A DNA stretch of 64,000 nucleotides from Stegostoma tigrinum (taxonomy: Eukaryota), in contig NC_081366.1 in NCBI RefSeq assembly GCF_030684315.1, positions 38,230,078 to 38,294,077 of the forward strand, read 5' to 3'. Shown here in pieces: positions 716 through 39,862 of the stretch. The stretch's first letter is position 1. Every line of letters begins with the position of its first letter. The position numbers were made by a program, and so were the translations under genes. The notes below the pieces were generated by a model. It did not search any database, was not told where the DNA came from, and worked only from the letters and a program-made list of their open reading frames with translations.

Positions 716-1087
716 CTGAAAGATAAAAGATAATGAGACATTATTTCTGAGTAGAGCTGCTCCAGACCCACTTTCTGTTTTAGAGTATTTGTGAGGTCTC
801 AACATCTATCTGAACATCAGAGGCACATTGCATGTGTGACCAGGGGCTTTTTGTAAAATCAACCAAGAAACACATTGAAACCTAATAACGAAATAACTTA
901 TAGTATACTTCCATGCTAGACATATGAATTACAGAAAATATAGCACAAACAGGAGCCATTTTGTTCATACAGGGGAATGTATGTCACTGGACAGTTATCC
1001 AGAAATCCACGCTATTGCTCAAGGATAATAAAATGTGAGGCTGGATGAACACAGCAGGCCAAGCAGCATCTCAGGAGCACAAAAGCT

Positions 1088-1115
1088 GACGTTTCGGGCC
1101 TAGACCCTTCATCAG
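1088..1115 (-). ncRNA. minimal type I hammerhead ribozyme motif (PLE family A)
   Basis: Reverse complement reads CTGATGA-A-GGGTCTAGGCCC-GAAACGTC. Confidence 0.75.
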
Positions 1116-1339
1116 AGAGGGGGATGGGGGGAGGGAACTGGAATAAATAGGGAGAGAGGGGGAGGCGGACCGAAGATGGAGAGCAAAGAAGATAGGTGGA
1201 GAGGGTGTAGGTGGGGAGGTAGGGAGGGGATAGGTCAGTCCAGGGAAGACGGACAGGTCAAGGAGGTGGGATGAGGTTAGTAGGTAGCTGGGGGTGCGGC
1301 TGGGGGTGGGAGGAAGGGATGGGTGAGAGGAAGAACCGG

Positions 1340-2926
1340 TTAGGGAGGCAGAGACAGGTTGGACTGGTTTTGGGATGCAGTGGGTGGGGGGGAAGAGCTG
1401 GGCTGGTTGTGTGGTGCAGTGGGGGGAGGGGATGAACTGGGCTGGTTTAGGGATGCAGTGGGGGAAGGGGAGATTTTGAAACTGGTGAAGTCCACATTGA
1501 TACCATATGGCTGCAGGGTTCCCAGGCGGAATATGAGTTGCTGTTCCTGCAACCTTCGGGTGGCATCATTGTGGCAGTGCAGGAGGCCCATGATGGACAT
1601 GTCATCAAGAGAATGGGAGGGGGAGTGGAAATGGTTTGCGACTGGGAGGTGCAGTTGTTTGTTGCGAACTGAGCGGAGGTGTTCTGCAAAGCGGTCCCCA
1701 AGCCTCCGCTTGGTTTCCCCAATGTAGAGAAAGCCGCACCGGGTACAGTGGATGCAGTATACCACATTGGCAGATGTGCAGGTGAACCTCTGCTTAATGT
1801 GGAATGTCATCTTGGGGCCTGGGATGGGGGTGAGGGAGGAGGTGTGGGGACAAGTGTAGCATTTCCTGCGGTTGCAGGGGAAGGTGCCGGGTGTGGTGGG
1901 GTTGGAGGGCAGTGTGGAGCGAACAAGGGAGTCACGGAGAGAGTGGTCTCTCCGGAAAGCAGACAGGGGTGGGGATGGAAAAATGTCTTGGGTGGTGGGG
2001 TCGGATTGTAAATGGCGGAAGTGTCGGAGGATAATGCGTTGTATCCGGAGGTTGGTAGGGTGGTGTGTGAGAACGAGGGGGATCCTCTTGGGGCGGTTGT
2101 GGCGGGGGCGGGGTGTGAGGGATGTGTCGCGGGAAATGCGGGAGACGCGGTCAAGGGCGTTCTCAATCACCGTGGGGGGGAAGTTGCGGTCCTTAAAGAA
2201 CTTGGACATCTGGGATGTGCGGGAGTGGAATGTCTTATCGTGGGAGCAGATGCGGCGGAGGCGGAGGAATTGGGAATAGGGGATGGAGTTTTTGCAGGAG
2301 GGTGGGTGGGAGGAGGTGTATTCTAGGTAGCTGTGGGAGTCGGTGGGCTTGAAATGGACATCAGTTACAAGCTGGTTGCCTGAGATGGAGACTGAGAGGT
2401 CCAGGAAGGTGAGGGATGTGCTGGAGATGGCCCAGGTGAACTGAAGGTTGGGGTGGAAGGTGTTGGTGAAGTGGATGAACTGTTCGAGCTCCTCTGGGGA
2501 GCAAGAGGCGGCGCCGATACAGTCATCAATGTACCGGAGGAAGAGGTGGGGTTTGGGGCCTGTGTAGGTGCGGAAGATGGACTGTTCCACGTAACCTACA
2601 AAGAGGCAGGCATAGCTGGGGCCCATGCGGGTGCCCATGGCCACCCCCTTAGTCTGTAGGAAGTGGGAGGAGTCAAAAGAGAAGTTGTTGAGTGTGAGGA
2701 CGAGTTCCGCTAGGCGGATGAGAGTGTCGGTGGAGGGGGCCTGGTCGGGCCTGCGGGACAGGAAGAAGCGGAGGGCCTTGAGGCCATCTCCATGCGGAAT
2801 GCAGGTGTACAGGGACTGGACGTCCATGGTGAATATGAGGTGTTGGGGGCCAGGGAATTGGAAGTCCTGGAGGAGGTGGAGGGCGTGGGTGGTGTCACGG
2901 ACATAGGTGGGGAGTTCCTGGACCAA
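1340..2926 (-). CDS. PLE reverse transcriptase + GIY-YIG endonuclease, N-terminally truncated
   Basis: 528-aa ORF; the listed start is an internal TTG and the frame is open up to the truncation point. Confidence 0.8.
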   Translation of the reverse strand: MVQELPTYVRDTTHALHLLQDFQFPGPQHLIFTMDVQSLYTCIPHGDGLKALRFFLSRRPDQAPSTDTLIRLAELVLTLNNFSFDSSHFLQTKGVAMGTRMGPSYACLFVGYVEQSIFRTYTGPKPHLFLRYIDDCIGAASCSPEELEQFIHFTNTFHPNLQFTWAISSTSLTFLDLSVSISGNQLVTDVHFKPTDSHSYLEYTSSHPPSCKNSIPYSQFLRLRRICSHDKTFHSRTSQMSKFFKDRNFPPTVIENALDRVSRISRDTSLTPRPRHNRPKRIPLVLTHHPTNLRIQRIILRHFRHLQSDPTTQDIFPSPPLSAFRRDHSLRDSLVRSTLPSNPTTPGTFPCNRRKCYTCPHTSSLTPIPGPKMTFHIKQRFTCTSANVVYCIHCTRCGFLYIGETKRRLGDRFAEHLRSVRNKQLHLPVANHFHSPSHSLDDMSIMGLLHCHNDATRRLQEQQLIFRLGTLQPYGINVDFTSFKISPSPTASLNQPSSSPPPTAPHNQPSSSPPPTASQNQSNLSLPP

Positions 2927-3338
2927 AGGGGAGAAAATGGAGTCCAGATAGGTGGAGATGAGTTCGGTGGGGCAGGAGCAGGCTGAGACGATGGGTCGAC
3001 CAGGGCAGGCAGGTTTGTGGATTTTGGGAAGGAGATAGAAACGGGCTGTGCGGGGTTGGGGAACAATGAGGTTGGAGGCTGTGGGTGGGAGGTCCCCTGA
3101 GGTGATGAAGTCATGAATGGGGCTGTGGGTGGGAGGTCCCCTGAGGTGATGAGGTCATGAATGGAACCTGGACCTCCCACCCACAGCCTCCAACCTCATT
3201 GTTCCCCAACCCCGCACGGCCCGTTTCTATCTCCTTCCCAAAATCCACAAACCTGCCTGCCCTGGTCGACCCATCGTCTCAGCCTGCTCCTGCCCCACCG
3301 AACTCATCTCCACCTATCTGGACTCCATTTTCTCCCCT

Positions 3339-4925
3339 TTGGTCCAGGAACTCCCCACCTATGTCCGTGACACCACCCACGCCCTCCACCTCCTCCAGGA
3401 CTTCCAATTCCCTGGCCCCCAACACCTCATATTCACCATGGACGTCCAGTCCCTGTACACCTGCATTCCGCATGGAGATGGCCTCAAGGCCCTCCGCTTC
3501 TTCCTGTCCCGCAGGCCCGACCAGGCCCCCTCCACCGACACTCTCATCCGCCTAGCGGAACTCGTCCTCACACTCAACAACTTCTCTTTTGACTCCTCCC
3601 ACTTCCTACAGACTAAGGGGGTGGCCATGGGCACCCGCATGGGCCCCAGCTATGCCTGCCTCTTTGTAGGTTACGTGGAACAGTCCATCTTCCGCACCTA
3701 CACAGGCCCCAAACCCCACCTCTTCCTCCGGTACATTGATGACTGTATCGGCGCCGCCTCTTGCTCCCCAGAGGAGCTCGAACAGTTCATCCACTTCACC
3801 AACACCTTCCACCCCAACCTTCAGTTCACCTGGGCCATCTCCAGCACATCCCTCACCTTCCTGGACCTCTCAGTCTCCATCTCAGGCAACCAGCTTGTAA
3901 CTGATGTCCATTTCAAGCCCACCGACTCCCACAGCTACCTAGAATACACCTCCTCCCACCCACCCTCCTGCAAAAACTCCATCCCCTATTCCCAATTCCT
4001 CCGCCTCCGCCGCATCTGCTCCCACGATAAGACATTCCACTCCCGCACATCCCAGATGTCCAAGTTCTTTAAGGACCGCAACTTCCCCCCCACGGTGATT
4101 GAGAACGCCCTTGACCGCGTCTCCCGCATTTCCCGCGACACATCCCTCACACCCCGCCCCCGCCACAACCGCCCCAAGAGGATCCCCCTCGTTCTCACAC
4201 ACCACCCTACCAACCTCCGGATACAACGCATTATCCTCCGACACTTCCGCCATTTACAATCCGACCCCACCACCCAAGACATTTTTCCATCCCCACCCCT
4301 GTCTGCTTTCCGGAGAGACCACTCTCTCCGTGACTCCCTTGTTCGCTCCACACTGCCCTCCAACCCCACCACACCCGGCACCTTCCCCTGCAACCGCAGG
4401 AAATGCTACACTTGTCCCCACACCTCCTCCCTCACCCCCATCCCAGGCCCCAAGATGACATTCCACATTAAGCAGAGGTTCACCTGCACATCTGCCAATG
4501 TGGTATACTGCATCCACTGTACCCGGTGCGGCTTTCTCTACATTGGGGAAACCAAGCGGAGGCTTGGGGACCGCTTTGCAGAACACCTCCGCTCAGTTCG
4601 CAACAAACAACTGCACCTCCCAGTCGCAAACCATTTCCACTCCCCCTCCCATTCTCTTGATGACATGTCCATCATGGGCCTCCTGCACTGCCACAATGAT
4701 GCCACCCGAAGGTTGCAGGAACAGCAACTCATATTCCGCCTGGGAACCCTGCAGCCATCTGGTATCAATGTGGACTTCACCAGTTTCAAAATCTCCCCTT
4801 CCCCCACTGCATCCCTAAACCAGCCCAGTTCATCCCCTCCCCCCACTGCACCACACAACCAGCCCAGCTCTTCCCCCCCACCCACTGCATCCCAAAACCA
4901 GTCCAACCTGTCTCTGCCTCCCTAA
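3339..4925 (+). CDS. PLE reverse transcriptase + GIY-YIG endonuclease, N-terminally truncated
   Basis: 528-aa ORF, mirror of 1340-2926; YIDD catalytic motif intact. Confidence 0.8.
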   Translation: MVQELPTYVRDTTHALHLLQDFQFPGPQHLIFTMDVQSLYTCIPHGDGLKALRFFLSRRPDQAPSTDTLIRLAELVLTLNNFSFDSSHFLQTKGVAMGTRMGPSYACLFVGYVEQSIFRTYTGPKPHLFLRYIDDCIGAASCSPEELEQFIHFTNTFHPNLQFTWAISSTSLTFLDLSVSISGNQLVTDVHFKPTDSHSYLEYTSSHPPSCKNSIPYSQFLRLRRICSHDKTFHSRTSQMSKFFKDRNFPPTVIENALDRVSRISRDTSLTPRPRHNRPKRIPLVLTHHPTNLRIQRIILRHFRHLQSDPTTQDIFPSPPLSAFRRDHSLRDSLVRSTLPSNPTTPGTFPCNRRKCYTCPHTSSLTPIPGPKMTFHIKQRFTCTSANVVYCIHCTRCGFLYIGETKRRLGDRFAEHLRSVRNKQLHLPVANHFHSPSHSLDDMSIMGLLHCHNDATRRLQEQQLIFRLGTLQPSGINVDFTSFKISPSPTASLNQPSSSPPPTAPHNQPSSSPPPTASQNQSNLSLPP

Positions 4926-5149
4926 CCGGTTCTTCCTCTCACCCATCCCTTCCTCCCACCCCCAGCCGCACCCCCAGCTACCTACTAACCTCATCCCACC
5001 TCCTTGACCTGTCCGTCTTCCCTGGACTGACCTATCCCCTCCCTACCTCCCCACCTACACCCTCTCCACCTATCTTCTTTGCTCTCCATCTTCGGTCCGC
5101 CTCCCCCTCTCTCCCTATTTATTCCAGTTCCCTCCCCCCATCCCCCTCT

Positions 5150-5177
5150 CTGATGAAGGGTCTAGGCCCGAAACGTC
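5150..5177 (+). ncRNA. minimal type I hammerhead ribozyme motif (PLE family A)
   Basis: CTGATGA core, stem II GGG/CCC, GAAA, palindromic ACGT stem III, GTC cleavage triplet ending at 5177. Confidence 0.75.
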
Positions 5178-7110
5178 AGCTTTTGTGCTCCTGAGATGCT
5201 GCTTGGCCTGCTGTGTTCATCCAGCCTCACATTTTATTATCTTGGAATCTCCAGCATCTGCAGTTCCCATTATCTCTGATACTATTGCTCAAGGATACAG
5301 GTTTGAATCCCACCATGGTCAAGTAGTGAAATTAGAATTCAATAAAAATTCTGGAATTCAAAATTAGCTCAATGGTGTTCATGTCAATTGCCTTAAAAAT
5401 CATCTGGTTCACTAACACCCTTTAGGGAATGAAATCTGCCATCCTTACCTGGTCTGACCTACATATGACTCCACAGCACAGTAATGTGGTTGACTCTGAA
5501 CTACCCTCTGGGCAATAAGGGATGGACAATAAGTGCTGGCTGAGCCAGCAATGAATGATGTGAAATAAAGCTATATCAGTGCTAGAATTTGTATAGTAAA
5601 ATATAATCAAGTTCGGTTTGGGAAAAAGTTTGAACAAGTGCAGGAGCAGATTACAAAATTTAACCCTGCCGAACAAAATTAATGCATAGCTTTACAAAGA
5701 AAAATGGCACCAATAAAAGTTTACCTTCCCTGTATTTTAGGCATATCATAACCCATTGTTTTTAGCATTTTCTACCATGTGAAATTGAAAGGTTGATCAT
5801 ATTACAATTGTTGATTGTTCTGAAGCTATTGCATGCATCATGTGTCTTTCATTGTTATGTAAAAGAAAGACTGGCAACTGTGGAAACAGAGCTCTGTAAA
5901 GCAGAACAACATTTGACTAGGAGCTGTCAAAATCAGAAACTCACTTGGAAATCAATTTAAACATAAGCATAAAACTTATTGGCCTTTCTCTTCCAATAAG
6001 GAGATAATTGTTACTGCAGTATAGATAAGAGATATGCACAGGAGCCAAGCAGAAGTCCCAAAGCGGCTGACTCTGCCTTATAATGGTCAGGAAGTTGAAG
6101 ATTCTGCCTAAAAAAAGGTCCCCAACTCTGAGTTATTGTTGGAGACTTCAAATGGTTCCTGCTCATGTACTTAAATAGTCATGCAGGAAAACCAAGAATA
6201 ATCAAAAGCTGCTCTGATCCCTGCGTAACTACAAAACCACCCCCTACAACTCACCACCGCTCTCTCCCACTGATTAAGTGTTCCCAAACTCCCATAGACA
6301 CTGATACCTGCCCTAGGTCAACCTGTGAGCCCTCCCCCACCCGACCCCTGCTCTGCCACAAGGACCTCACCCAAGTTACTGCCCAGGACCCCTGACAAAA
6401 GAAGGAGACTCACAACCCAATACCACTTGCCCAAAATATACCCCAGCACACAGCCTGACCTAACCGCCAACACACCCAAAAAGATGATCCCCGATGTCCC
6501 GCAATCCGATGCCCCCGATTTGTCACCTCTCCCGACCTGAAGCCCCACCCAAATTTGACCACTAACATTTCTCCCACCAGCTCCTCACCTGACATTGCGC
6601 CTGACATTCCCCTCCTCCTCCTGTCCTAACATCCCCCCAACTTGACCACCAATCTCCATCAGCTCAGACTCAAACCCTGACACCCCGATGTCTATGTTGC
6701 CCCGCTCTACTCTGAAAGGTTTTCCTCCACTATGGTAGGAGAAGCATGGCCAGGAGCCTTCCAGCCAGGAAGTCCCCAGCAAAAGGTGCTGTGATCCCAC
6801 AGTCACTCAACTTTTCTTTGTTTTTGCACAATATGGTGAAAAACGGCATCACTAAAATCCTGTGGGATCCTGCCCTGTTCCCAGCTGACCATGAAAAACT
6901 CATGGAGTTTAATATGTTGGGCACAGTCACCATGCCTCAAATAGCCTTGCCACAACCACTGCTTGGACTCATACTGGCAGCGTGTCATCCAGGACCATGC
7001 AGAGAATTGACAGAGAACCACATCCCAAAGCAAGTCAACGGGAAATGGTGATTTCATTTGTGATTAAAATAATATTTGCAACAATAACTGATATAATACA
7101 CTATCCTTAC

Positions 7111-13435: not shown

Positions 13436-13789
13436 TCTTAGGCCCTCACATCACATTTTATTCTGATCACATCAAAACCATGAAATTTCACTTTCAATCA
13501 AAAATTAAGGAATACTGTTGTTCAATATAACTAACAACCTGATAATGAGTTGGTGGGTTGTGAGAATTTGCTGGCATTGCTGGCTATTAGACAGACATAT
13601 AGATGGTCTGGTCTATATCATTTTGCAAGCTCAGGGCGCTGAGGCCAATGATAGTATCCTAGCAATTTCCTCAGCTGAATCAGAGTGTCAGCTAAGAATC
13701 AAGCCTGAGATATTTTGGCTTGTATATCGTAATGTTTAATAGTTATTCATCAGACAATCATACAAGAAAAGTTTCCACGGCAAAATGAA

Positions 13790-15132
13790 GAGATAGTAAG
13801 AACTGCCAATGCTGGAGTCAGAGATAACACAGTGTGGAGCTAGAGGAATACAGCAGGCCAGGCAGCATCAGAGGAGCAGGAAAGTTGACATTTCAGGTCG
13901 GGACCCTTCTTCAGAAATGTGGAGAGGTAAGGGAGCTCAGAAATAAATAGATAGAGGACGGGTGGGATGGGGAGATAGGCGGGATGGTGATAGGTGAGTG
14001 GAGATAGAGAGTGGTGAGGGTTGGTCAGTGAGGTGGGGGGGACAGGTAGGTGGGAGAAAAGAGGGACAGGTTGTGTTAGGCCAAGGAGGTGAGGAAGAGT
14101 GGGAGGGTTAGACATGGGATGAGGCCGGGGGTGGGGAGATTTTGAAACTGGTGAAATCCACATTTAGGCCATCAGGCTGTAAGCTCCCAAGGTGGAATAT
14201 TGGGTGTTGCTCCTCCAGTTTGTGGGTTGTGTCTTTGTGCCACTGGAGGAGGCCCAGGATGGACATGTAACCCAGGGAGAGGGAGGGGGAGTTAAAATGG
14301 TTGGCGACCAGAAGGTGTTGTTGTTTGTCCTGAACAGAATGCAGATGCTCGACAAAATGGTCTCCGAGCCCCTGCTTGATCTCACCGATGTAGAAGACAC
14401 CACATCGGGAGCAGCAGATACAGTAGACCAAGTTGATGGATGTGCAGGTGAGCCCATGTCTGATGTGGAAGGTGTGTTTTGCGCCTTGGATGGAGGTGAG
14501 GGGGGGAGGTGTAGGGGCAGGTGCAGCACTTCCTGCGTTGCAGGGAAGGCGCAAGGGGTGGCGGGGTTAGTGGGGAGTGTGGAGTGGATGAGGGGATCAT
14601 GGAGAGGCTATGAAAGCTTTTGTACAACATCTGCACTCTGTTTGCGACAAACGACAACACCTTTAGGCCACAATCCATTTCGACTCCCCCTCCCACTCCA
14701 TAGGTGACATGTCCATCTTCAGCCTCCTCCAGTATCACAATGACACTACCTGCAAACTGGAGGAGCAGCATCTCATGTTCCACCTCAGGAGCCTACAGCT
14801 CGATGCCCTAAATGTGGATTTCACCAGTTTTAAAATCTCCCCACTCCTAGCCTCATCCCATGACCAACCCGGCTTCTCATCCCCCCTTCTTTGACCTGAC
14901 ACAATCCGCCCCTCCCACCACACTGACCAATCCCCACCACTCCCTACCTGCACTCAACTATCACCATCCTACCTACCGTCCCCAGCCTGACCCCATCTCT
15001 TCCTATTTACTTCTGAGCTCCCTTGCCCTCCCACCATATCTGAAGAAGGGACCTGACCCAAAACATCAACTTTCCTGCTCCCTGATGCTGCCTGTCCTGC
15101 TGTGTTCCTCCTGCTCCACACTGTGTTATCTC
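13790..15132. mobile_element. older inverted pair of PLE 3' fragments (minus arm 13790-14607, plus arm 14608-15132)
   Basis: Both arms carry degenerate GIY-YIG sequence (LVYCICCSRCGVFYIGE; MSIFSLLQYHND) and degenerate hammerhead motifs at about 13886-13914 and 15040-15068. Confidence 0.9.
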
Positions 15133-15416: not shown

Positions 15417-18214
15417 CTAGGAATGAATCACAGAATGGGAATTAGAAAACTGTGCAATTCAAGGACTATATTTTAGCTCAATAAATTATACATAACACAC
15501 AAATTATAATGAACTGCCACTTATATAGTATCATTATCTTACAGCCATTCTAAGACAATTCAGAAGCGGGAAAATGTGCAATGGGCCAAAGAAAAAGCTA
15601 TTATGAAGATATCAAAAGCTATGTCAAGGAAATGGGTCTTAAGGAAATGTTTGAAGGAGGGGAGGAAATTAGTTTAAAGAAGGAATGCCAAAGTCTGGCA
15701 TCAAGTCAACTGAAAGCATGACCACTAATGGTGGATTGAGAAGCATGACCAATTTGTGGGGGATGTTTATTTTTTAAATTTGATCTTGAAACATGGGCAT
15801 CACTGGCTCATTATTGCCCACCCCTAATTGGCCTGGAAAGGTGGTAATGAATTGTGTTCTTTTATTGCTGCAGCCCCGAGGTGTCAATGCAACCACAGTG
15901 CTGTTGCGAAGAATATTCCTATAATTTTGACCCAGTGACAGTAGAAGAATGACGCTATAGTTCTGAAATTGAATGTGTGCAAGAGGGAAACCTGGTTCAT
16001 GAGACAGAGAATTCCAAATTTTAGCAAAATTTAAATATGACAAATTTTGGATTTGAGGTACAATAGCTTTAGGATGCACTGATAGCCATGAAATTATTTG
16101 AACAATGAAACTTGGATGTGACATGACTGTAAGGGAAGTGTTTCAGAAGGAAGTGGGCTAAAATAGGAGCAGAAGTGAATAATTTTACATGCAGTCCTTA
16201 TAATGTGGAGGATATGGATTGGAAGCTCAGCCTGAGATGGAACAACATAAAGGATATGCTCTTCTGGTTTAGATTGTCACTGACTGAGAAGGGATATGGA
16301 GTGGGTGGCAGGGATAAGTATTTAAATTGGGAACAATCGATGATTGCTTGATAGTTCCTAATACTTAGCTGGATGAGGCTAAGGCTCATTCAAAACAGAG
16401 AACATGAAATTTCTGGGAAAGGGGGGAGCTGGAGTTATAAAGGGGTGAGTTGGTGGTTGCAAAAGTTAGGGATGAAAAGGTACTAGGCTGGCTCTGTAAG
16501 ATGTTCGTGCTTCCTAGATAACAAGGTGTAGAGCTGGATGAACACAGCAGGCCAAGCAGCATCTTCGGAGCAGGAAAGCTGACATTTTGGACCTGCTTCC
16601 TTGTGCTTTTCCAGGAGATTTGACCTCAGCAATGCAATCTTCCAAGCATCACACAGCCCTGCTAGTGTGTCAGTGTCCTGGTAACTGTGAGGAGGAGTTG
16701 TACAGTGGAAGGTCTGAGATACAATACTTTAAGGATATGAAATATGCATGGGCCTGAAAAATAGGAGACTAGACACTGTGTTCATGGTACGGAGATTTCC
16801 TATTTCATCAGGATCTCATGGAGACTGATGTCTCAATCCAACAGTAGTGTCACTAATGTAGTGGCAGCCATTCCCCTAGTTATGATGTTGCCATCATCGA
16901 GTCTCTGCCAATCTGCACTGGTGAGGCAGCGAATACTGCTGGCTAAACCCATATGATTGGCAGATCAAACTCTCACCTCTGGAACCCATCCCAGCCCTAA
17001 TTAGGCACCAAATCTGAAGGTGACCTACTAACAGACTCCTTCCTGTTTGGTCCCCAAAGATAAATTTGATGCTTGAAAAATTTCCTAGACCAGTAGATCT
17101 GGCCTTAATGCCAGACAAAATGTAGTGGGTCAAGGAAGGTGGTGGTTCAGTAGAGGTATGGGATCCCCATACATGTTGAAGCCAATTTCATATTTAAAGA
17201 AGTTGTAAAATGGAGGGCACTTTGATAATCAAGACGAGGCAGCTGTTGTTATCCCCATGGAATTATTACAGCATAGAAGTCAGCCACCATGTCTGCGCTG
17301 GTCCTCCAATAGACTGTATGTTGCTCCCCCACCCTCTCCCTAGACCCTAACACCTTCATTATCTAAAGATACTTAGAGAAGTTATAAAATTTAACAGTAT
17401 AGAACGAATCAATGCTTGCCCAATGTATCTGCACGGCCAAGAAACAAATCACCCAGTCTAATCCCATTTTCCTATGTTTTATTGGGAGGGGGGTGGTTTC
17501 AGGTGCATATCCAGTTAGATCCTTTATTCGGTATCCTTAGGAATCAGTATTTGCCTTCAAAGAGAAGCTGTTGTTGGAAATTCTGATCTACGTCCAAAGT
17601 TAACAGCAGAATCATGTGGGTTTAGTAAGTGACAGGCATTGCACAACATCAAGATTAAAAAAGACACCTCTAGCAAGCACATGATACCATTTTTAAGAAG
17701 TTATGTAGAGTTTTCCATCTTTCTGCCATTCATTTTGAACTCCGAGAATTAAGTCCTATTTGATATGGATCTGGCACATTTCCAGCTCATTTTGAGCCCA
17801 ATTGGTACCTGGCAAATGGCAGCAGTATGGTTGAACTCCCAAGCCATTGGCTGAATCGTATTTTTTTGGCTAATTGTGAACTGCATTGATGTTTTTAAGA
17901 GGGATTCTCGCTCTAAGACATGGTGAGATTTCTCAGCATATCTATTGGAATGGTGAGGCTACCATAAAGGACTCCTTCTTAACTTCTCCATCACCTGAGG
18001 TGCAGTGACCCTTGAGTCAAACCACCACCAGCTGTCTCTTTCTCTCTAATAAGAGAGCAGCCCTATGGTGCAGTAGGACTATGGAGATTCTATTTATGGT
18101 GATAACCCTGACAATGCCCTAATTAATCTCCCTGTGGAGTTTGGTGAGTACGAGTTCCTTTCATAATAGACAGTGGTCTGTCACGCTTGAACATCTGAGC
18201 CAGAGTGACTCTTG

Positions 18215-18320: not shown

Positions 18321-21049
18321 ATCATAAAGCAGACCCAGGGATAGGTTTACAGAACTGCTTAACCCAGACTGGGGCTGGCCTATTTATACCGTGAGTTGTG
18401 GCTGTATTTAGGTGTTCAGCAATAAGTAATGTTCCTTTCTAGTCATGCTTCCTGACTGTTTAAAATTACTTATTATTCCCAGTTACATTCTTCTTCTGAA
18501 CTAATGAATGTCACCATGGATAATAGCAGCAGTATTTCAATTGGCCTCAATGCTCCAAAGTTAGATCTTGTACCAACAGCCAGCTAACTCTCATTGTTAA
18601 ATCACATACCCAAAGCCTCTTCTGACAGTACCTTCTAAACTTGCAGCCTCTACCACTTAGCAAAGGAGCAGCAGATGTACATGAGCATGCACACCTGCGA
18701 ATACTCCTTCACGGCACACAAAATCCTAACTAAGAAATATAAATGCTCTTTCATCGGGTTCGCTGTGTTAAAAAAACAAGAACACCCTCTATAACAGTAC
18801 TGTGGCTTTATCTGCAGCAGATAAACTGTAATCGTTCAAGTTAAGTCTCCACCACATTAACAGCAATTACAGACAGGCAATAAATGCAAGTGAATTAGTG
18901 TAGATGTCAAGTACGTTAGCAAAGAATCAACAGATTCAACATGCAGGGCAGTGCAAGGAGAAAATCATTTTTAAAAAAATTAAGATTTAATTGTGACGGT
19001 TTTGCCAATTTTACAGCAATTTATGTAGAAATTATAAAGAAACTGAACTTCCCATTTCACGCAAGTGTCTTATCCTGTATACTCCTGAATTCACTAATCC
19101 ATGCTGCAGTAAGTAATCCTTTAAAGAGCACTAAACAATCCTCCAGTATCTCAAACAACTAGCTCTTCTTCCTGTGGTCACCCTGGACAGAGTGCAGGAA
19201 GGCTATTCACAACAAAATATATTTATTAAGCACATCAGTTGACTTTATTCGAAAGGTGAATGTTTGGTAGCTCACATTTGACCTCAAAAAACTTAAGATT
19301 ATCTCATCAGCAGTTTATTGCTGTACATTCTTATTCAACAACATTTGTGACAGGTATTCCTTTCATTCAACAGGAATTGTATTGTTCTGAATACTGCAAA
19401 ATAACACAATTAAAATTGTATTAGATTTATAGTAATTTGCTCCTTTCTATTCTGAAAGTGTCATTCATACTGGGTGTGGTTCCATGAAAGACAGTTATTC
19501 ATTCATACTGCCTGAGCTCAATACTGAGCATTGGAGGCTTCTTTGGGCGCACAGGACATTGTAACTTATCCTGGTCATTTTCTAATTTGAAGTATAATGT
19601 GGTCATTTTCTATCAGGACCCAGTGGTTAGTGATTGACAGTAAGAACCCCAGCTATTGCTTTTCTTCTCAGATAAGGGCACAGGGCTTTTGGAACACACC
19701 GATGCTGCATTACTGAGGATTTAACTTACAATGAGAATGGTGCTTTAATTAAACGTCTATCATGATGCTTTTTGTATTTAAGTTGTTTCTGAATTATTTA
19801 CTGTTATAGTTGAAGTTCTAGTCAAGAAAATCAATGCATAATGAAAGGTCCTATAAGTAGTTGTGCCATTAAAGAATACTTCATTAAGCTCACTATTATG
19901 TATTTAGGAATAGCAGATTAAATGGATGGGGTTTCAATGAATCAGTGGGCAACAGCCAAAAAGCTGTTTCATTCCTGGTTCAGGGGGAGATAATAGCCAA
20001 GCTGTCAGTTGAAACACAACAGTTTGTTTAATACCAGTGAATGAGGGAGAGGAATTATCAATCAGGTGAGAATGGGATCAGTCTGTGAATGTAAATAACC
20101 AACAAACACGTGCTCCCAGGAGTCTAGGGAGAAATCATCCAGTGAAGGAAGCCTTGGAGGGTACCTCATCACCATGGAGCCACGCTATGAACAAAATCAG
20201 CAGCGCCGAAAATGTTTTGGAAATATCTCCAATGGAATCAGGTATCCACCATTCATAATAATTACACTTTAGTTCTCCATTAAAAAGTTAGAGGTTTAAT
20301 TTTATCCTAACATCATTTTTTCCCTGAGGAAAATACTGAAATTGAACAGAAATAGCATTAATAATCAAAGCGTTATAGCTTTCTGTGAGACATTTTAATT
20401 ATAAGATTACCTTATCTCCAAAGATCCTTTGAGTTCAAAATCTATTTATTTCTTATTTAAAGAATGTGGCATGCCCTTAATTTAGTTTAAGCTAATTAAG
20501 ATGTTATACTCATTCAGATGTGTGGGAGAGTTTTTAAGTATTAGAGCTGATTCAGTCCCTTGGCATTGGTTGAAATACAGATCACAAGCGATGTCCTGAA
20601 GGCTCAGCAAATTTAACTTCTGAACTAATGAGCCATTCAGGCCTTCTAGATTCCTGATTCTCTCCCATTTGATGCTAATTACTTAATTTTAGCTGTTACC
20701 ATGGTACTGTTTCTACAATTGATATACATACTTTTGTGATAGGCAAAGAAAAGTCAGGCAACATGGCAATTTCTCCTCATTGCAAATTGACAGGAGTGAG
20801 TTGAGAATAAGACTGAGCTCAGCTGTAAAGCACACAAGTAATGAATTTATTAAGATATCCAGATGGCTCAAACTGTTTTCACAATGTCGATGTGTATTTT
20901 CTCTGAAAATAGCTATTTATCACTTTCAATATTTTCAGTTATTTATTTACATAATTTATGAGTTTTTAACAAAATCTTGTTGCATATTTTTCCATTTTTT
21001 AAAAATGAACTCCAAACGTATGCAAAATAAATAAATAAACAATCCTTAC

Positions 21050-21327
21050 CTTGCTGTTTCCTTCCATTGCAATTGTTTCTTATTGTCAAAAAAAAGTTCA
21101 TCTAGTTCAGTGAAGAGTTGTGGGCTTTGGGGTTCATCCTCTTCACCCAACATCAAGCAGACTCTCTTGGTAGCAGGTGATAGATTTGCAGTAAATATGC
21201 CTCTATTTACTGCTTGCGAGACGATTAGAGAATTGCGATTCTGTAGTTCTGTTTTGCAGATACAATCATTACAGGCTTCATTTGCCCTATTATGCAGAAG
21301 CAGCTCTTTTGTCTCTTCAGGTGTCAT
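21050..21327 (-). CDS. SLC4 transporter, probable first coding exon with NBCe1-A-like N-terminus
   Basis: ATG at 21327 with an in-frame TGA two codons upstream; ends ...GIFTANLSPATKRVCLMLGEEDEPQSPQLFTELDELFFDNKKQLQWKETA(R) then gtaagg; the 3' half is clearly SLC4, the exact start codon is less certain. Confidence 0.85.
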
Positions 21328-23021
21328 TGCTCAAATAACAAAGTTCACACTTGAACTGAAATGACTTGCTCCTGCAACAAGTCCGAATTACAGCTGAAGT
21401 CTTGTACCTTAAATGCAGTGCCCTAATAATTCTCAGTGGCTTACAATATTATTGAATACAATTCTGACAACAGTGGAGCTTTACCAGTACATCACAGGAA
21501 AAAGCTTGTCCTGTCCAGACTGATGCAGGCTTTGTTACTAAATCATGATATACCACTGCAAAAACAACAGCTTCTCTTCCTGGACCTCTGAATTCTTCAA
21601 AACATCTAACAAATATATTCACAAGATATTCACATAATAAACCATGTCCTTTAATATTTATTTTTGTATAGCACATGGATATATTTTCAGAGATAATATT
21701 TGTAAAACAATATTTTCTGACAAAGCTGAGACCTTAGAATTTTGGTTGTATTTGTCAAGTTTGTTTAAACTAGCTTCCTTCCCAATTAAGATATAGGTAG
21801 ATACTGGGTTCTGTAGGTTTCTGTCAGGTCTTTCCTACAAAGTTTATTAACCAAGTGCACAATTACCACTGGCAAAGTACTTGACCACAAGGGAAAGCGA
21901 ATTAGGGTGCAGCTAACTCTGTCCCACTGTCTGACTCAGAAGTCCCTTAAAATGCATGTTCCAGAAGCACCACCAACCAGTGATTGAAAATGGAAATCTT
22001 CTCTTTGTTCTTTGCAAACACATGGTTTTTCCAATTGAGATCGCCACATGCATTTAACTGAACGTGAACTCTTTTAATCTGTATGGTTGAGTTCCAGACT
22101 AAGCAATTATGGAAATGGCCTATTACCAGTATAGGTATAAGCATAGTAAGCTCTTTGACACCTTTTTAAAATTTGTGTTGGTAGTCTAGGCTTATTTTGG
22201 TCTACACTTAATCTTCATTCTTAGAATTCATGCCTACTGATAATAAGAAACAGAGTCATTCTATAATTTGCACATTTGGGACAGTTAGTTTTATGGTCAT
22301 TAAAACATGTTATTCCTTCAATACCAAAGTGACATTGGCTAGAGTCCAATAAAAGGATTGCAGAGACTAGGTAACAGAGTTGTCTATGTCTGACAGAAAT
22401 TTCTACAAACAAGCAGCTATGTTTACACTGTAAAGAGTATAATGTATATAAAAACAAATTTCATCATACACTGTATTATTATGTAAACAACATTGTAACA
22501 TAGCACATTTTTTACAAAAACTTAAATAAGCGATGTCAGCAAACAAAATAATTTAGTAACTCACCTGATATTCTTTAATGTCACTTCTGATATGATGAAT
22601 CATATTTGGTTTGTTACCCAGCCATTCTCAAGTACAGAGCTGAAGTAATCATTATTCATGTCTGAGGCTAGAGTACGTTACTAAATTATTTAACACTGCA
22701 AGATATCAAATCCAATTTACAATCCGCCAGTATCTGCACTTCAGGGAATGCTGGCAAATCTTTTCTTCTCTCAGACCCATAGTTGGGTATATGAGTGAAG
22801 TAATGCCTCATGCCCCTGCTATGGCATCATCAACTTGGAAACCAATCTGAGAATTTCCTGAAAGTTACGTGTCATAATGTACATTTCCTTCTTCTATTAA
22901 CATGTATGTTCTATAATTTTTAAAAATATTTCGTTATCAAGTGTATTCTCTCTTCTACTGATAGAATAAACTCTTATGGATGCAATTAGACAATATGTTG
23001 CACAAACAGCCAATCTTCATA

Positions 23022-23158
23022 AAAACAACCCAAAGAACAGAGGATGCTGGAAATCAGAAGCAAAAACAGAAATTGCTTGAAAAATTCAGCAGATCTGGAC
23101 CTGAAACATTAATTTTGCTTTCTCTCCACAGATGCTACCAGACCTGCTGACATTTTCT
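23022..23158. mobile_element. miniature inverted PLE-tail element (family B) with 14-bp TSD
   Basis: agccaatcttcata at 23008-23021 and 23159-23172; arms tcagcagatctgg / ccagacctgctga face outward. Confidence 0.75.
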
Positions 23159-23234
23159 AGCCAATCTTCATACCTGAGTTTCGGCACTCAGGAGTTGATA
23201 ATGCCTGTGTAAAATTTGCTGACCGCCAAATTTG

Positions 23235-24253: not shown

Positions 24254-26580
24254 TAATCAGTGATAATGGGAACTGCAGATGCTGGAGAATCCAAGACAAC
24301 AAAATGTGAGGCTGGATGAACACAGCAGGCCCAGCAGCATCTCAGGAGCACAAAAGCTGATGTTTCGGGCCTAGACCCTTCATCAGAGAGGGGGATGGGG
24401 TGAGGGTTCTGGAATAAATAGGGAGAGAGGGGGAGGCGGACCGAAGATGGAGAGAAAAGAAGATAGGTGGAGAGGAGAGTATAGGTGGGGAGGTAGAGAG
24501 GGGATAGGTCAGTCCAGGGAAGATGAACAGGTCAAGGAGGTGGGATGAGGTTAGTAGGTAGGAGATGGAGGTGCGGCTTGGGGTGGGACGAAGGGATGGG
24601 TGAGAGGAAGAACAGGTTAGGGAGGCAGAGACAGGTTGAACTGGTTTTGGGATGCAGTGGGTGGAGGGGACGAGCTGGGCTGGTTGTGTGGTGCAGTGGG
24701 GGGAGGGGACGAACTGGGCTGGTTTTGGGATGCGTTGGGGGAAGGGGAGATTTTGAAGCTGGGTAAGCCAACATTGATACCATTGGGCTGCAGGGTTCCC
24801 AAGTGGAATATGAGTTGCTGTTCCTGCAACCTTCGGGTGGCATCATTGTGGCACTGCAGGAGGCCCATGATGGACATGTTATCTAAAGAATGGGAGGGGG
24901 AGTGGAAATGGTTTGCGACTGGGAGGTGCAGTTGTTTATTGCGAACCGAGCGGAGGTGTTCTGCAAAGCGGTCCCCAAGCCTCTGCTTGGTTTCCCCACT
25001 GTAGAGGAAGCCACACCGGGTTCAATGAATGCAGTATATCACATTGGCAGATGTGCAGGTGAACCTCTGCTTAATATGGAAAGTCATCTTGGGGCCTGGG
25101 ATAGGGGTGAGGGAGGAGGTGTGGGGGCAAGTGTAGCATTTCCTGCGGTTGCAGGGGAAGGTGCCCGGTGTGGTGGGGTTGGAGGGCAGTGTGGAGCGAA
25201 CAAGGGAGTCACGGAGAGAGTGGTCTCTCTGGAAAGCAGACAAGGGTGGGGATGGAAAAATGTCTTGGGTGGTGGGGTCGGATTCTAGATGGCGGAAGTG
25301 TCAGAGGATGATGCGTTGTATCCGGAGGTTGGTGGGGTGGTGTGTGAGAACGAGGGGGATCCTCTTTGGGCGTTTGTGGCGGGGGCGGGGTGTGAGGGAT
25401 GTGTTGCGGGAAATGTGGGAGACGCGATCAAGGGTGTTCTCGACCACTGTGGGGGGAAAGTTGCGGTCCTTGAAGAACTTGGACATCTGGGATGTGCGGG
25501 AGTGGAATGCCTCATCGTGGGAGCAGATGCGGCAGAGGTGGAGGAATTGGGAATAGGGGATGGAATTTTTGCAGGAGGGTGGGTGGGAGGAGGTGTATTC
25601 TAGGCAGCTGTGGGAGTCGGTGGGCTTGAAATGGACATTAGTTACAAGCTGGTTGCCTGAGATGGAGACTGAGAGATCCAGGAAGGTGAGGGATGTGCTG
25701 GAGATGGCCCAGGTGAACTGAAGGTTAGGGTGGAAGGTGTTGGTGAAGTGGATGAACTGTTCGAGCTCCTCTGGGGAGCAAGAGGCGGCGCCGATACAGT
25801 CATCAATGCAACGGAGGAAGAGGTGGGGTTTGGGGCCTGTGTAGGTGCAGAAGAGGGACTGTTCCACGTAACCTACAAAGAGGCAGGCATAGCTGGGTCC
25901 CATGCGGGTGCCCATGGCCACCTCCTTTGTCTGTAGGAAGTGGGAGGAATCGAAAGAGAAGTTGTTGAGGGTGAGGACGAGTTCGGCTAGGCGGATGAGG
26001 GTGTCGGTGGAGGGGGACTGGTTGGGCCTGCGGGACATTAAGAAGCAGAGGGCCTTGAGGCCATCTGCATGCGGAATACAGGTGTTTAGGGACTTGACGT
26101 CCATGGTGAAAATGAGGTGTTGGGGGCCAGGAAATTGGAAGTCCTGGAGGAGGTGGAGGGCGTGGGTGGTGTCACGGATGTAGGTAGGGAGTTCCTGGAC
26201 CAAAGGGGAGAAAATGGAGTCCAGATAGGTGGAGATGAGTTCGGTGGGGCAGGAGCAGGCTGAGACGATGGGTCGACCAGGGCAGGCAAGTTTGTGGATT
26301 TTGGGAAGGAGATAGAAACGGGCCGTGCGGGGTTGGGGAACAATGAGGTTGGAGGCTGTGGGTGGGAGGTCCCCTGAGGTGATGAGGTCATGAATGGTGT
26401 TGGAGATGATGGTTTGGTGCTCGGGTGTGGGGTCATGATCGAGGGGGCGGTAGGAGGTGGTGTCGGAGAGTTGGCGTTTGGCCTCGGCGATGTAGAGGTC
26501 AGTGCGCCATACTACCACTGCGCCACCCTTGTCTGCGGGTTTGATGGTGAGGTTGGGGTTGGAGCGGAGGGAGCGGAGGG
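24254..26580 (-). mobile_element. Penelope-like element family A, 5'-truncated, non-inverted, inactivated
   Basis: ORF 25301-26518 plus downstream fragments; YIDD changed to CIDD and in-frame stops; includes the upstream IKPADKGG motif; TSD ctgtttact at 24245-24253 and 26581-26589; hammerhead variant at 24359-24386. Confidence 0.95.
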
Positions 26581-27690
26581 CTGTTTACTGCCTGTTTTAC
26601 ACTAGGCACTAGTTTGGGAAAGGGTTCAAAATTCATAGGGAAGAAATGTTGGATAGACTATTGGTTCCTAAAGTGACAAAGCTCTGAGACCAGATAAAAT
26701 GCATCGAAGGAAATGAGAAAGAGGTAAGAGAGGGAATTGTGTGGACACTGACCATTTCTTTCAGTCTTCCCTTGGCTCAGGAATGACAAGACTGGAGAAT
26801 TGCACAATTCACATCCTTGTGCAAATAGGATTGTAAAGATAAGCCCAGCAAATAGACCAGTCTGCTGGCGTTTTTAAAAAAGGCTTGCATTTATATTGCG
26901 CCTTTTACAAACAACATCTATTTAAAAAGGGCTTTACAGTGAATTAAGTTTTGTATTGCCATGTAGTCACTGTATTGGAGAGGCACAGAGAGTAGCATCC
27001 CTACCTCAGAGGCCCTGGGTTCAAAGCCCACTTCAGGACTTGATGGCCACAGAACCTGCATTCATAACATAGACGAAACGTTTGAATATTAACTTGTATC
27101 TCCTACTAATAGACCGTGGTAAAAGCAGGGCAGATTTCTGATCAGATCAGCCATGTGATTGCTAGAAGTTGAAACCTCTGTCATAGTTCCAGACCATAAC
27201 ATACGTGTAAAAGTATATCTTGTCAGAGCAACTCAAACCCCATGGGGTCTGGTTGGCTCAGTCGGTTGTTGTAAATCAAACTGGAGTGAATAGAATGGGT
27301 TTGATGCCCATTCCAACTGGGGTGAACACAGGACCTGCCCCCTGTGGTGAAAATTGTGGCAGTGTTGGTCAGACCTTCCTTCAGTCAGAGAACTTGAGAA
27401 GACTCACTGTTTTGGTGCACATCCACTATAAAAAGACAGTGGGATATTACGACAGCAAAGTCACCACTGTCTGTTTTACATCCAATGCAAAAGTTAAAAA
27501 TCCACCCCAAGTTAAACTGTACTTCTTTCAAAGCCAGACATATGTGAAATTAACTACGACATGGCATTAGATATCAAAGCTCATTCTGAAGTTAAATATA
27601 AAATGCTGTACTGGTTCCTGATCCAGAGTCCAAGGAGACAGGTGTCTGATGGAGAAATGACAGGACAAGGAGGCTGACAAGCATGAGAAG

Positions 27691-29033
27691 CAGAGATAAT
27701 GGGAACTGCAGATGCTGGAGAATCCAAGATAACAAGGTGTGAAGCTGGATGAACACAGCAGGCCAAGCAGCATCTCAGGAGTACAAAAGTTGACGTTTCA
27801 GGCCTAGACCCTTCATCAGAAAAGGGGGATGGGGAGAGGGCTCTGAAATAAATAGGGAGAGAGGGGGAGGCGGACCAAAGATGGATAGAGGAGAAGATAG
27901 GTGGAGAGGAGAGTATAGGTGGAGAGCTGGGGAGGGGATAGGTCAGTCCGGGGAGGACAGACAGGTCAAGGAGGTGGGATGAGGTTGGTAGCTGGGAAAT
28001 GGAGGTGCAGCTTGAGGTGGGAGGAGGGGATAGATGAGAGACAGATCGGGTTAGGGAGGCGGGGATGAACTGGGCTGGTTTTGTGATGCAGTGGGGGAGG
28101 GGATGAACTGGGCTGGTTTTGGGATGCGGTGGGGGAAGGGGAGATTTTGAAGCTGGTGAAGTCCACATTGATACCATTGGGCTGCAGGGTTCCCAAGCGG
28201 AATATGAGTTGCTGTTCCTGCAACCTTTGTTGGCATCATTGTGGCACTGCAGGAAGCCCACGATGGACATGTCGAATAAGGAATGGGAGGGGGAGTTAAA
28301 ATGGTTCACGACTGGGAGGTGCAGTTGTTTATTGCGAACCGAGCAGAGGTGTTCTGCGAAGCGGTCCCCAAGCCTCAGATCAACCAAGTGGAGGCTTGCA
28401 GACCGCTTTGCAGAACACCTCTGCTCGGTTTGCAATAAACAGCTGCACCTCCCAGTCGCGAACCATTTTAACTCCCCCTCCCATTCCTTAGACAACATGT
28501 CCATCATGGGCCTCCTGCAGTGCCACAATGATGCCACCAAAGGTTGCAGGAACAGCAACTCATATTCTGCTTGGGAAACCTGCAGCCCAATGGTATCAAT
28601 GTGGACTTCACAGGCTTCAAAATCCCCCACACCCCCACTGCATCCCAAAACCAGCCCAGCTCGTCCCCTCCCCCCACTGCATCACGAAACCAGCCCAGCT
28701 CATCCCCACCTCCCTAACCTGTTCTTCCTCTCACCTATCCCCTCCTCCCATCTCAAGCTGCACCTCCATTTCCCAGCTACCAACCTCATCCCGCCTCCTT
28801 GACCTGTCCGTCCTCCCCGGACTGACCTATCCCCTCCCCACCTATACTCTCCTCTCCACCTATCTTCTCCTCTATCCATCTTCGGTCCGTCGGCCCCTCT
28901 CTCCCTATTTATTTTAGAACCCTCTCCCCATCCCCCTCTCTGATGAAGGGTCTAGGCCCGAAACGTCAGCTTTTGAGCACCTGAGATGCCGCTTGGCCTG
29001 CTGTGTTCATCCAGCTTCACACTTTGTTATCTT
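27691..29033. mobile_element. inverted pair of PLE family A 3' fragments (minus arm to 28376, plus arm from 28382)
   Basis: TSD agcatgagaagcag at 27680-27693 and 29034-29047; hammerhead motifs at 27792-27819 (-) and 28940-28967 (+). Confidence 0.93.
28940..28967 (+). ncRNA. minimal hammerhead ribozyme motif (PLE family A)
   Basis: CTGATGAAGGGTCTAGGCCCGAAACGTC, identical to 5150-5177. Confidence 0.7.
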
Positions 29034-30164
29034 AGCATGAGAAGCAGTTTAGGTCACGACAGATAAATCATAATCAGTCAAATTTGGATAATCTGAAGCT
29101 CCAGGTGTAGCAAAGTTGTCAGCTATTCCCACTGGCAGAATAGGAAATACAGGATGTCTGAGACAAGCTAAGGTTTCAGACTGTTAACTCTGGATTTGCT
29201 AAACTCGTGCATTGTTGTCATATGATCTCACTCACCAATCTGCGAAGAGTTACATCACATCAGAGTGCAAAATCATGGACAGGGATGCAATAATTGCTGT
29301 AAAAGGATCCCATGCACATTCTCAATGCATATTCTCTGAAATGCATTTTTAACCTTGATCAAACCAGACTGTTTTAGTGTGATTTTGCAAATTGTTTTTT
29401 ATTGTTTAATGTACAAATATGTATTGGTGGAAAGCGAAGCAAGGAATGTCATGCTGCTATGGCCTACACCAACATTAATGCTACCCGAAAGCTACCACAG
29501 CCAGTGTCAGGCAAGTCCAAAAGGTTACGTTGCTTTGTGAATGTTAAGATACAACCAGTGTAGTATAAGACTGACAAAACCATTTGGATAACCTCCAGCA
29601 TTTTGGAAATGTGGTCTGGAAATTGGGCAAAATATAACAACAGAAGTAAAGGAAGCATCTGATGATGATCCTGAAGAGTCCAATAAATACACACGTGGTC
29701 AACAGCCTGTTTCCCTGGCTACAGATGGTAACACCTATGAGATAATCCAGGATTTCGCACCATAGCACAGAAACACAGAAAACATGCTTGACTCGATGGC
29801 AGACTCACCACAAGAGAATAAGCTAAGTAGAAAAAGGGCATTGAAATTTTTTCCAGACTTTAACACAGCATTTTTCAATGTCTTTTACTGCATAGGGTGA
29901 GGTCACAGTAAGGCAAGTAAAAATAAAGGCATTTTTCCACATACTTGCTGCATTACCAAGTTCTCATTTTTATTAAGCATAGAGCACAACTGTAGGTAAA
30001 TAAGGTTACACGAAGGCTTTCTCAGCTATCTCGAAGCTCCAATTAACCCAAATTTGCGGGCAGGATCCCTGTAATCATAATTTTACTTCTTGTAAAGAAG
30101 TAGTGACAGTGCCTTAATGGATGTTTTGGAGAAAGCCAGGAGAGGCAGAAGTGATAGTCATGTC

Positions 30165-38821: not shown

Positions 38822-39862
38822 TCAGAAACAAAAACAGAAGTTGCTGGAAAAGCTCAGCAGGTCTGGCAGCATCTGAAGAAAAGCCATGGCCAACATTTCA
38901 GGTTTGGTGAACCTTCCAAGAGCTGATGGTAACTAGAAAAATGTTGGTTTATATGCAGAAGGTGGGGATAGAGCCCAAAGAGAGATCAGTTGCATAGACA
39001 AAGGAGTTGGAACAATCTGGCTGGGAGAATGAATAGCAAATGCAGTAGACTAGATTCTGGGAAGTGCAGGTAAAGTGCACAATGTTTGAGCTCTTGGGTA
39101 CTGGGGAGGGAGGAGGTAAATTGACAGGTGCAGGGGAACGTGCCCTGGGGGTGAAGGAAGAGTGGACCACAGTATCCTGGAGAGAACGTTCCCTGTGGAA
39201 GGTGGACAAGGGAGGAGAATGTGTGCCTGTTGGTGGCAGACGTGGCAGCAGGTGATCTTCTGGATGTGGATGCTGGTGGGATGGTAGTAGGGTCAAGGGG
39301 AACCCTATCACTGTTGCAGGAGGGAAAAGAAGGGATGAGAGCAGAGGTGCTGCAGATGGGTTGGGCTTGGTTTGAAGGCTTTGTCGCCAATGGTGCTGGG
39401 GAATCCTTGGTGGTGGAAGGTGGACATTTTGCAGCCTCCCTTAAATGAAGTTGGCCTGATCAGAACATATGGAGCAGAGACGGAGGAACTGAGAGAATAG
39501 AACAGAGTCTTTACAGGAAGCCAGGTGCAAGTATGTATCGGCCAGGTAGTCTGGGAGATGGTGCATTTATAGTGGATATTAGTGGCTAGCCTATCCCCAG
39601 AAATGGAAACAAATGTCAAGGAAGGAGTCAGAAATAGACCATGTGAAAGTGAGGGCAGGGTGGAAATTGGAAGTGAGAGAGAAAAAAAAAATGAACTTTT
39701 CTAATTCCAGATGAGAGAGGGAAGCAGCACCGATGATATCATCAATACAACCAGACAAAGTTGTGGTAGGTGCCCAGAATAGGACTGGTGCAAGGAATGT
39801 TGCATTTACTATACCAAGAGACAGGCATAAAACTTGGTTACATGGGGTACCCATGGCCATTC
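38822..39862 (-). mobile_element. degenerate Penelope-like element (family B) in DCK intron 6
   Basis: MAMGT, CIDDIIGAASLSHLELEKFI and FTCTSQNLVYCI remnants; family B tail at 38822-38910. Confidence 0.8.

Follow-up and report, generated by a model that had tools for sequence, protein, structure and literature searches.

Minimal hammerhead ribozymes of metazoan Penelope-like elements (PLEs) were described by Cervera and De la Pena (2014, PMC4209133), and the available text of that paper provides a close counterpart to the motif reported here. In both cases the ribozyme lies in the pseudo-LTR (pLTR), occurs in thousands of dispersed copies, and combines a type I core with an extra nucleotide that separates position 9 from 10.1, a G10.1-C11.1 pair and a loopless, palindromic 15.2-16.2 segment of stem III. 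Some copies are paired on opposite strands, in that study 100-700 bp apart. Monomers were inactive and dimers weakly active, and the ribozymes were proposed to act as dimers; dimer cleavage of minimal hammerheads is also cited in the available part of PMC6765202. The Schistosoma consensus has a stem I of 4-5 bp and a stem II of 7-8 bp, whereas the stems here have 2 and 4 bp. Up to 9,000 copies per genome were counted in PMC4209133, compared with about 128,000 here, and the accessible text of that paper presents no in vivo evidence, whereas genomic ends peak at the predicted cut in our data.

Inverted PLE insertions are also documented. As here, the available portions of Arkhipova et al. (2013, PMC3846280) and Craig et al. 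(2021, PMC8557442) report head-to-head arms, a duplication flanking the whole unit, a 30-40 nt tail that is often one-sided, and junction palindromes. The inverted-plus-tail pattern is thus known qualitatively, and the requirement of stem III for a partner is a published expectation. In those accounts the tail is optional and self-priming or endonuclease resolution was suggested, whereas we find strictly one arm of each kind; unlike the arms described there, those studied here co-terminate, and either one may be the longer. The Poseidon element PAc of Anolis (Frangieh et al., 2024, PMC11167929), according to the sections available, resembles our element in having two adjacent internal reverse transcription (RT) start sites that bound a tail, with the hammerhead upstream of them, and it resembles the mechanism proposed below in that both target strands are nicked and extended. 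It differs in that its ORF starts inside the hammerhead, in that start-site use in vitro shows no strand difference, whereas each arm of the genomic pairs here uses one site, and in that no RNA-seq reads end at its cut site, where genomic ends peak in our case. The anole protein is predicted to form a dimer, the ribozyme is described as protein-assisted, and catalytic mutants of the hammerhead leave in vitro insertion unchanged.

The window analysed here, that is, the whole 64-kb stretch of DNA, carries its hammerhead motif at the 3′ end of 5′-truncated copies of an element encoding a reverse transcriptase and a GIY-YIG endonuclease (Table 1). Among 20 long-ORF copies taken from the genome were several full-length ones, in which the motif sequence also stands upstream of the ORF as a 5′ pLTR and the ATG follows about 138 nt past C17. 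The single 1039-aa ORF of one copy (L189) matched RVT_1 (E 1.3e-05) and GIY-YIG (E 0.018), both under the curated cut-offs, and the translation holds a C-x4-C-x2-C linker between the RT and the endonuclease. A CX2-5CxxC linker of EN+ PLEs is common to Neptune and Nematis, according to the available text of Craig et al. (2021, PMC8557442). A partial-tandem pLTR, an inverted truncated copy and a 30-40 nt tail, three features of PLEs, are all present. By this layout the element appears to be a Neptune-type PLE, although the linker is common with Nematis.

Table 1. Coordinates of the insertion units, the tail, the putative promoter region and the predicted hammerhead parts in the window.
Feature	Position	Strand	Remark
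5′-truncated ORF: RT, CxxxxCxxC linker, GIY-YIG endonuclease	3153..4925	+	Pfam RVT_1 and GIY-YIG below curated cut-offs
Left arm: 5′-truncated PLE copy, proximal (short) 3′ end	1024..3120	-	2 mismatches in 2072 nt vs right arm
Right arm: 5′-truncated PLE copy, distal (tailed) 3′ end	3170..5280	+	
Centre junction	3077..3169	.	44-nt tandem duplication at left arm 5′ end, plus few extra bases
16-nt target-site duplication	1012..1027 (left copy), 5282..5297 (right copy)	+	
Tail of about 36 nt between the two 3′ ends	5242..5277	+	Both ends are putative RT start sites after ATTATC
Single tailed copy	24256..26584	-	94.5% identical; CpG-decayed hammerhead at 24359-24386
Second head-to-head pair; its left arm is tailed and its right arm short	27680..29047	.	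Hammerheads 27792-27819 and 28940-28967
TATA-like TATTTA, candidate promoter	5116..5121	+	About 30 nt upstream of main 5′-end cluster
Main cluster of arm 5′ ends, putative transcription start	5145..5149	+	1-5 nt before C3
Minimal type I hammerhead motif, right arm	5148..5179	+	Predicted cut after 5177
Stem I, 2 bp	5148-5149 / 5178-5179	+	
Hammerhead core	5150-5156	+	Extra A at 5157
Stem II, 4 bp	5158-5161 / 5166-5169	+	Four-base loop 5162-5165
GAA; stem III A15.1-C-G-U16.1; C17	5170-5172; 5173-5176; 5177	+	Stem III without loop
Hammerhead motif of left (short, tail-less) arm	1086..1117	-	Sequence comparison

Sequence comparison within the window found an identical 28-mer at 1088-1115 (-), 5150-5177 (+) and 28940-28967 (+). 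Two further copies are variants: at 24359-24386 (-) a G16.2 to A change of the CpG-decay type breaks the stem III palindrome, and at 27792-27819 (-) a C11.1 to U change leaves a G-U wobble in stem II. All five places had been named in the preliminary description and hold up. A loose core pattern matched five times in the window against 0.45 expected, a number reached in none of 100 shuffles, and a 25-nt pattern had 128,422 exact matches in the 3.2-Gb genome of the organism, with zero for the reversed control. No Rfam family, the hammerhead families included, matched the window at gathering thresholds. The motif had been placed about 100 nt before the element's 3′ end, which is correct for the tailed arms (end near 5277); the short arms end about 64 nt past C17. 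In the second head-to-head pair of the window a 14-nt duplication occupies 27680-27693 and 29034-29047, and the arm 5′ ends lie 9 nt apart.

The motif has CUGANGA, GAAA and UH in type I order and a palindromic 15.2-16.2 segment without loop III, the core and class features of minimal PLE hammerheads. A5157 is unpaired between positions 9 and 10.1 and is followed by the G10.1-C11.1 pair (G5158-C5169); an extra base is also found in other families. Stem I has the roughly 2 bp noted earlier. Likewise supported is the earlier reading that stem III could not close in a monomer. The ACGU duplex is predicted at only -1.7 kcal/mol, and the monomer is predicted to fold into an inactive hairpin (-11.4 kcal/mol). 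The quasi-palindromic stem II is self-complementary in the focal copy (predicted duplex -22.6 kcal/mol), and a dimer with swapped stems II is predicted to be stable at -38.0 versus 2 x -11.4 kcal/mol; loop II differs among families, and the stem II palindrome is therefore not conserved. By its sequence anatomy, the motif at 5148-5179, which belongs to the right arm of the focal head-to-head pair and lies in the pLTR of a putative Neptune-type PLE, is a predicted minimal type I hammerhead and adds to the described class.

We surveyed 1.74 Mb of the genome with a family-independent descriptor that does not require stems I and III, which gave 207 matches versus 2 in the reversed sequence. The first pair of stem I is formed in 195 of the 207 (U-A 175, A-U 17, C-G 3), the second is C-G in 136, U-G in 29 and U-A in 22, and the third is mostly unpaired. 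At 15.2-16.2 of stem III we counted CG 144 times, GC and TA three times each, and the CpG-decay forms CA/TG 52 times. Stems I and III covary between families. Position 7 of the hammerhead is free to vary; in these matches it differs by family (mostly U, A, G or U), and the remaining core is fixed. Conservation was measured as differences from the majority base in 106 copies spanning the region, with the core counted at non-CpG positions. The preliminary description had proposed excess conservation of the core over its flanks as a check, and this excess was found: the core differs at 15/1166 positions, against 321/7102 in the upstream flank (P 8e-9) and 130/5618 in the downstream flank (P 0.026). 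Stem II differs at 8/742, whereas N7 (5/106) and loop II (17/424) vary freely. Contigs from two related organisms (four runs) had 29 listed differences, none of them in 5149-5180, although such contigs may be biased toward conserved sequence by their seeding. Once a copy has inserted, its stem III CpG is lost at a near-neutral rate (8/128 versus 17/384 in the ORF), which points to selection on source elements and not on the dispersed copies.

To describe arm ends we use q, the window position minus 3169, so that C3 is q1981 and the first base past the predicted cut is q2009. Arm 5′ ends concentrate at q1976-1990, and arms of an older family likewise begin 3-4 nt before C3. The TATTTA upstream of this cluster varies at 6/636 positions (0.9%) versus 4.5% in the surroundings. 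We infer that transcription starts just upstream of the core, a start that would leave room for a very short stem I only; the cluster could instead reflect stalling of the RT at a C-rich tract. A splice acceptor was rejected as its source, since the cluster begins some 20 nt downstream of the nearest AG.

A second onset of arm ends is seen at q2009: 1 of 138 ends falls in q2000-2008 (9 nt) and 10 fall in q2009-2016 (8 nt). Genome-wide, 3043 copies start at the cut site, versus 449 at -1 and 394 at +1. This count is inflated because most matches are perfect palindromic junctions on the AGCT past the cut, a form of microhomology: among the first 100 cut-site matches listed, 63 carried the AGCT palindromic-junction prefix and 10 other microhomology. 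The share free of both classes is about 27% (some 820 copies, extrapolated from the matches listed), which is about twice the neighbouring positions. As palindrome controls we used the stem III ACGT (5 nt upstream), loop II and a downstream GGCC, leaving out the stem II GGCC. The AGCT past the cut had 595 perfect palindromic junctions, whereas the three controls had 39 (stem III ACGT), 123 (loop II) and 21 (downstream GGCC). Cut-site copies stem from several subfamilies, and where a cut-site locus was viewed together with its partner, 21 of 22 views show one tail per pair, a few loci being counted from both strands. For the AACT family, which lacks a palindrome past the cut, the comparison at the cut site is confounded, since 88 of 100 matches listed are a subfamily with an extra A and not truncations. 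Together, the excess of 5′ ends past C5177 is likely a footprint of in vivo cleavage, partly confounded by microhomology, and we consider it probable that the predicted hammerhead cleaves in vivo. Two cut-site starts have unusual neighbours: downstream sequence of the element itself stands in front of them, in one case the 5′ UTR with the first codons (L222 near 1500, minus strand) and in the other a short 3′ end (L219 near 1500, plus strand). This arrangement would reflect a jump between templates or, possibly, an RNA circle.

Head-to-head pairs were located by pattern matching in 1.54 Mb of the genome. We obtained 109 adjacent minus/plus candidates and dropped 10 for more than 300 uncovered nt between the arms, among them one short-short and one tail-tail case. 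The 3′ ends form two groups, near q2072 and near q2108, and every classifiable pair (80 of 80; 99 examined, 19 unclassifiable) joins a short arm to a tailed one. A stricter set held 69 one-of-each pairs and 3 apparent tail-tail cases. At three loci matching the apparent tail-tail type, a full element supplies the plus arm as its 5′ pLTR and has a short 3′ end at its far side. Locus L180 has tailed ends on both sides and arms 5.5% apart, and is either an exception to the one-tail rule or a double event. Among 27 pairs of a second, older family, 14 were one-of-each, 1 was a doubtful double-tail and 12 were unclassifiable. Duplications of at least 7 nt, with a mode of 14-15, flank 54 of 63 pairs (shuffled control 3/63), and each pair is therefore one event with a staggered cut.

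Partner arms resemble each other in both sequence and length. At five subfamily-diagnostic sites they were discordant in 21 of 372 site-pairs versus 146.7 expected, and in 12 of 23 long pairs the partner was the nearest copy for both arms. This suggests that partner arms share a template lineage; the common alleles are compatible with one RNA, two RNAs of the same source locus, or gene conversion between arms. The 5′ ends of partners are correlated (rho 0.61, 69 pairs), falling into the same class in 77% of pairs versus 40% when permuted. In 21 pairs with both arms long, for which end positions were read by eye, the arms stop no more than 30 nt apart in 8, versus 1.05 by permutation, and more than 130 nt apart in 9. 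The mean 5′ offset of the 8 near-stopping pairs is +4 nt, not +36. In detail, the L186 arms stop within about 6 nt of each other at 2.5 kb, and those of the focal pair within 25 template nt at 2.1 kb. Either arm may reach further, the short-ended one in 6 and the tailed one in 7 of the 21. A short arm at the start cluster was combined with a tailed arm stopping at or after the cut in 10 cases and the reverse in none, a polarity that would follow from a distal primer running behind the proximal one along a single RNA. About 6 of 69 pairs combine a long arm with one that ends in the start or cut cluster, which may fit two different pLTR copies or two RNAs. Junction centres (3077-3169 in the window, and those of L186 and L187) carry 29-64 nt repeats of arm-end sequence that resemble templated end-joining.

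On balance, we think it reasonably likely that the hammerhead lies at the RNA 5′ end, where it would cut a minority of molecules after C17, and that the double insertions are one RNA copied twice. Transcription would start 1-5 nt before C3, behind the TATA-like box. As the literature leads one to expect, stem III would need a second hammerhead to pair with before it could close; this partner would probably come from the other pLTR within one tandem transcript, and the protein would probably assist. Part of the templates have their 5′ end at A1.1 in the genomic pattern, for which such cutting would be the cause. A protein, probably a dimer, would nick the two target strands with a stagger of about 15 nt. 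Of the resulting 3′ ends, one would prime at the proximal site, and its counterpart would use the distal site, which lies 36 nt further downstream in the same RNA molecule. Both cDNAs would extend toward the RNA 5′ end, the trailing one displacing the leading one or stopping at it, and the cDNA ends would be joined by microhomology or templated end-joining. The combined proposal, that a protein dimer primes both strands on one RNA, at two fixed sites, to copy the same stretch twice, and that cut-site insertions record germline removal of a leader of about 30 nt, is more tentative and falls a little short of probable. One RNA with two priming sites fits better than a symmetric dimer of two RNAs because of the one-of-each arms, the common alleles and the co-termination, and the available in vitro results for the anole element (PMC11167929) agree, since both strands are extended there and two adjacent starts are used.

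The preliminary description had proposed that two element RNAs pair through the palindromes of stem III (and stem II), so that a single target site would receive two templates and the insertions would be symmetrical. The loopless stem III palindrome is indeed kept across families (CG 144 and GC 3 of 207), the stem II-swapped dimer is predicted to be stable as given above, the 595 junctions are compatible with both arms ending at the cut, as mutual cleavage in a dimer would give, and the 6 or so of 69 pairs in which a long arm faces one limited to the start or cut also suit two templates. Yet the pairs are not symmetrical: a symmetric dimer predicts neither the proximal and distal starts seen in 80/80 pairs nor the 10:0 polarity, nor does it predict co-termination kilobases from the ribozyme. 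Partner arms have alleles in common, the ACGU duplex is weak, loop II is non-palindromic in other families that form such pairs, Naiads without canonical hammerheads have inverted insertions as well (PMC8557442, in its available text), and in the anole experiments, as far as they are described in the available sections, catalytic mutants inserted normally, although stem III pairing was left intact there (PMC11167929). The pairing of RNAs is thus a quite improbable source of the double insertions. Two RNAs of the same locus, one per protomer of an asymmetric protein dimer and copied by coupled RT with the ribozyme outside the pairing, would account for the common alleles, the duplications and pairs with very unequal arms, and for the start-site rule if the dimer is asymmetric. 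Coupled synthesis of equal length should place the 5′ ends about 36 nt apart, whereas the near pairs (n = 8) average +4, and the 10:0 polarity is left unexplained; we regard this as unlikely. Self-priming, proposed for PLE insertions in the available text of PMC3846280, would make the second arm a fold-back, DNA-templated copy of the first cDNA. Near-identical arms, co-termination and junction palindromes are what it predicts, but such a copy cannot outreach a tailed first strand, and the short-ended arm is the longer one in 6/21 pairs, the tailed one in 7/21; both outer ends moreover lie at fixed sites, with a duplication. Of a fold-back we think very little as an explanation.

A separate question is whether the ribozyme acts at all. 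If it were inactive in vivo, the 5′-end excess past C17 would reflect AGCT microhomology or RT stalling at the 3′ edge of the folded motif. That cut-site matches are mostly palindromic junctions speaks for this, as do the anole cut site, at which no reads end in the available data of PMC11167929, and the poor cleavage of minimal hammerheads even as dimers (PMC4209133, available text). Against it, the ACGT palindrome 5 nt upstream has the same length but 15-fold fewer junctions (39 versus 595), an excess of about twofold remains once the microhomology classes are removed, and the core is kept while N7 is free. An inactive ribozyme is therefore rather doubtful, and cleavage of part of the transcripts remains our preferred reading.

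The proposed priming of one RNA from two strands recalls LINE-1 twin priming, in which a single RNA is likewise primed by each of the nicked strands and microhomology joins the cDNAs. In twin priming the internal start site is random and the cDNAs cover separate parts of the RNA; unlike this, the two arms here begin at fixed sites, 36 nt from each other, and cover one and the same stretch. Non-LTR retrozymes, in the available text of their description (bioRxiv 10.64898/2026.07.22.740005), share with our copies a type I hammerhead related to those of PLE pLTRs, but they are non-coding tandem repeats, whereas the copies here are truncated ends of an autonomous RT-endonuclease element. A retrozyme identity was rejected, as the copies come from the ends of a coding element and occur singly or head to head.

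In the literature searched (subscription journals and supplements lay outside its coverage) we found neither the one-site-per-arm rule, nor a genomic cut-site peak, nor the reading of one RNA with two sites. The very high copy number turns the genome into a read-out of the insertion mechanism, and three results are more useful than the motif itself: that each arm strictly uses one start site, that partner arms co-terminate, and that ends peak at the cut site. They bear on two questions raised in the available PLE literature, the origin of inverted one-tailed insertions and whether weak hammerheads cut in vivo. The same three patterns make specific predictions for the existing in vitro PLE system and argue against fold-back and RNA-RNA pairing as a general cause.

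Other hammerhead-bearing repeats occur in the window and in the sampled genome. Older subfamily copies of the focal element, 74-83% identical and with A at position 7, lie at 13789-15131, 16499-16594, 43951-44307 and 56479-56601, and the older subfamily copies in the window include two further head-to-head pairs, each with one short and one tailed arm. The segments 23060-23161, 38828-38875 and 48036-48361 are ends of an older related family with G at position 7 and U at 17, whose pairs in the sampled genome likewise keep to one tail each. At 44773-44797 (-) we noted the hammerhead of another repeat family, in which stem III is A-GC-U, the compensatory palindrome form; an upstream endonuclease match was found in none of three sampled copies of this family. 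A further family (22 copies, G000 sample, e.g. C1:911900-911950) has a stem II of 6-7 bp, U as the extra base and A-U as the first stem I pair. Finally, 21049-21330 (-) has a weak Band_3_cyto match (E 0.0012, below cut-off). This segment is possibly an exon of an SLC4-type host gene, in which case the insertions would sit in or near its introns.
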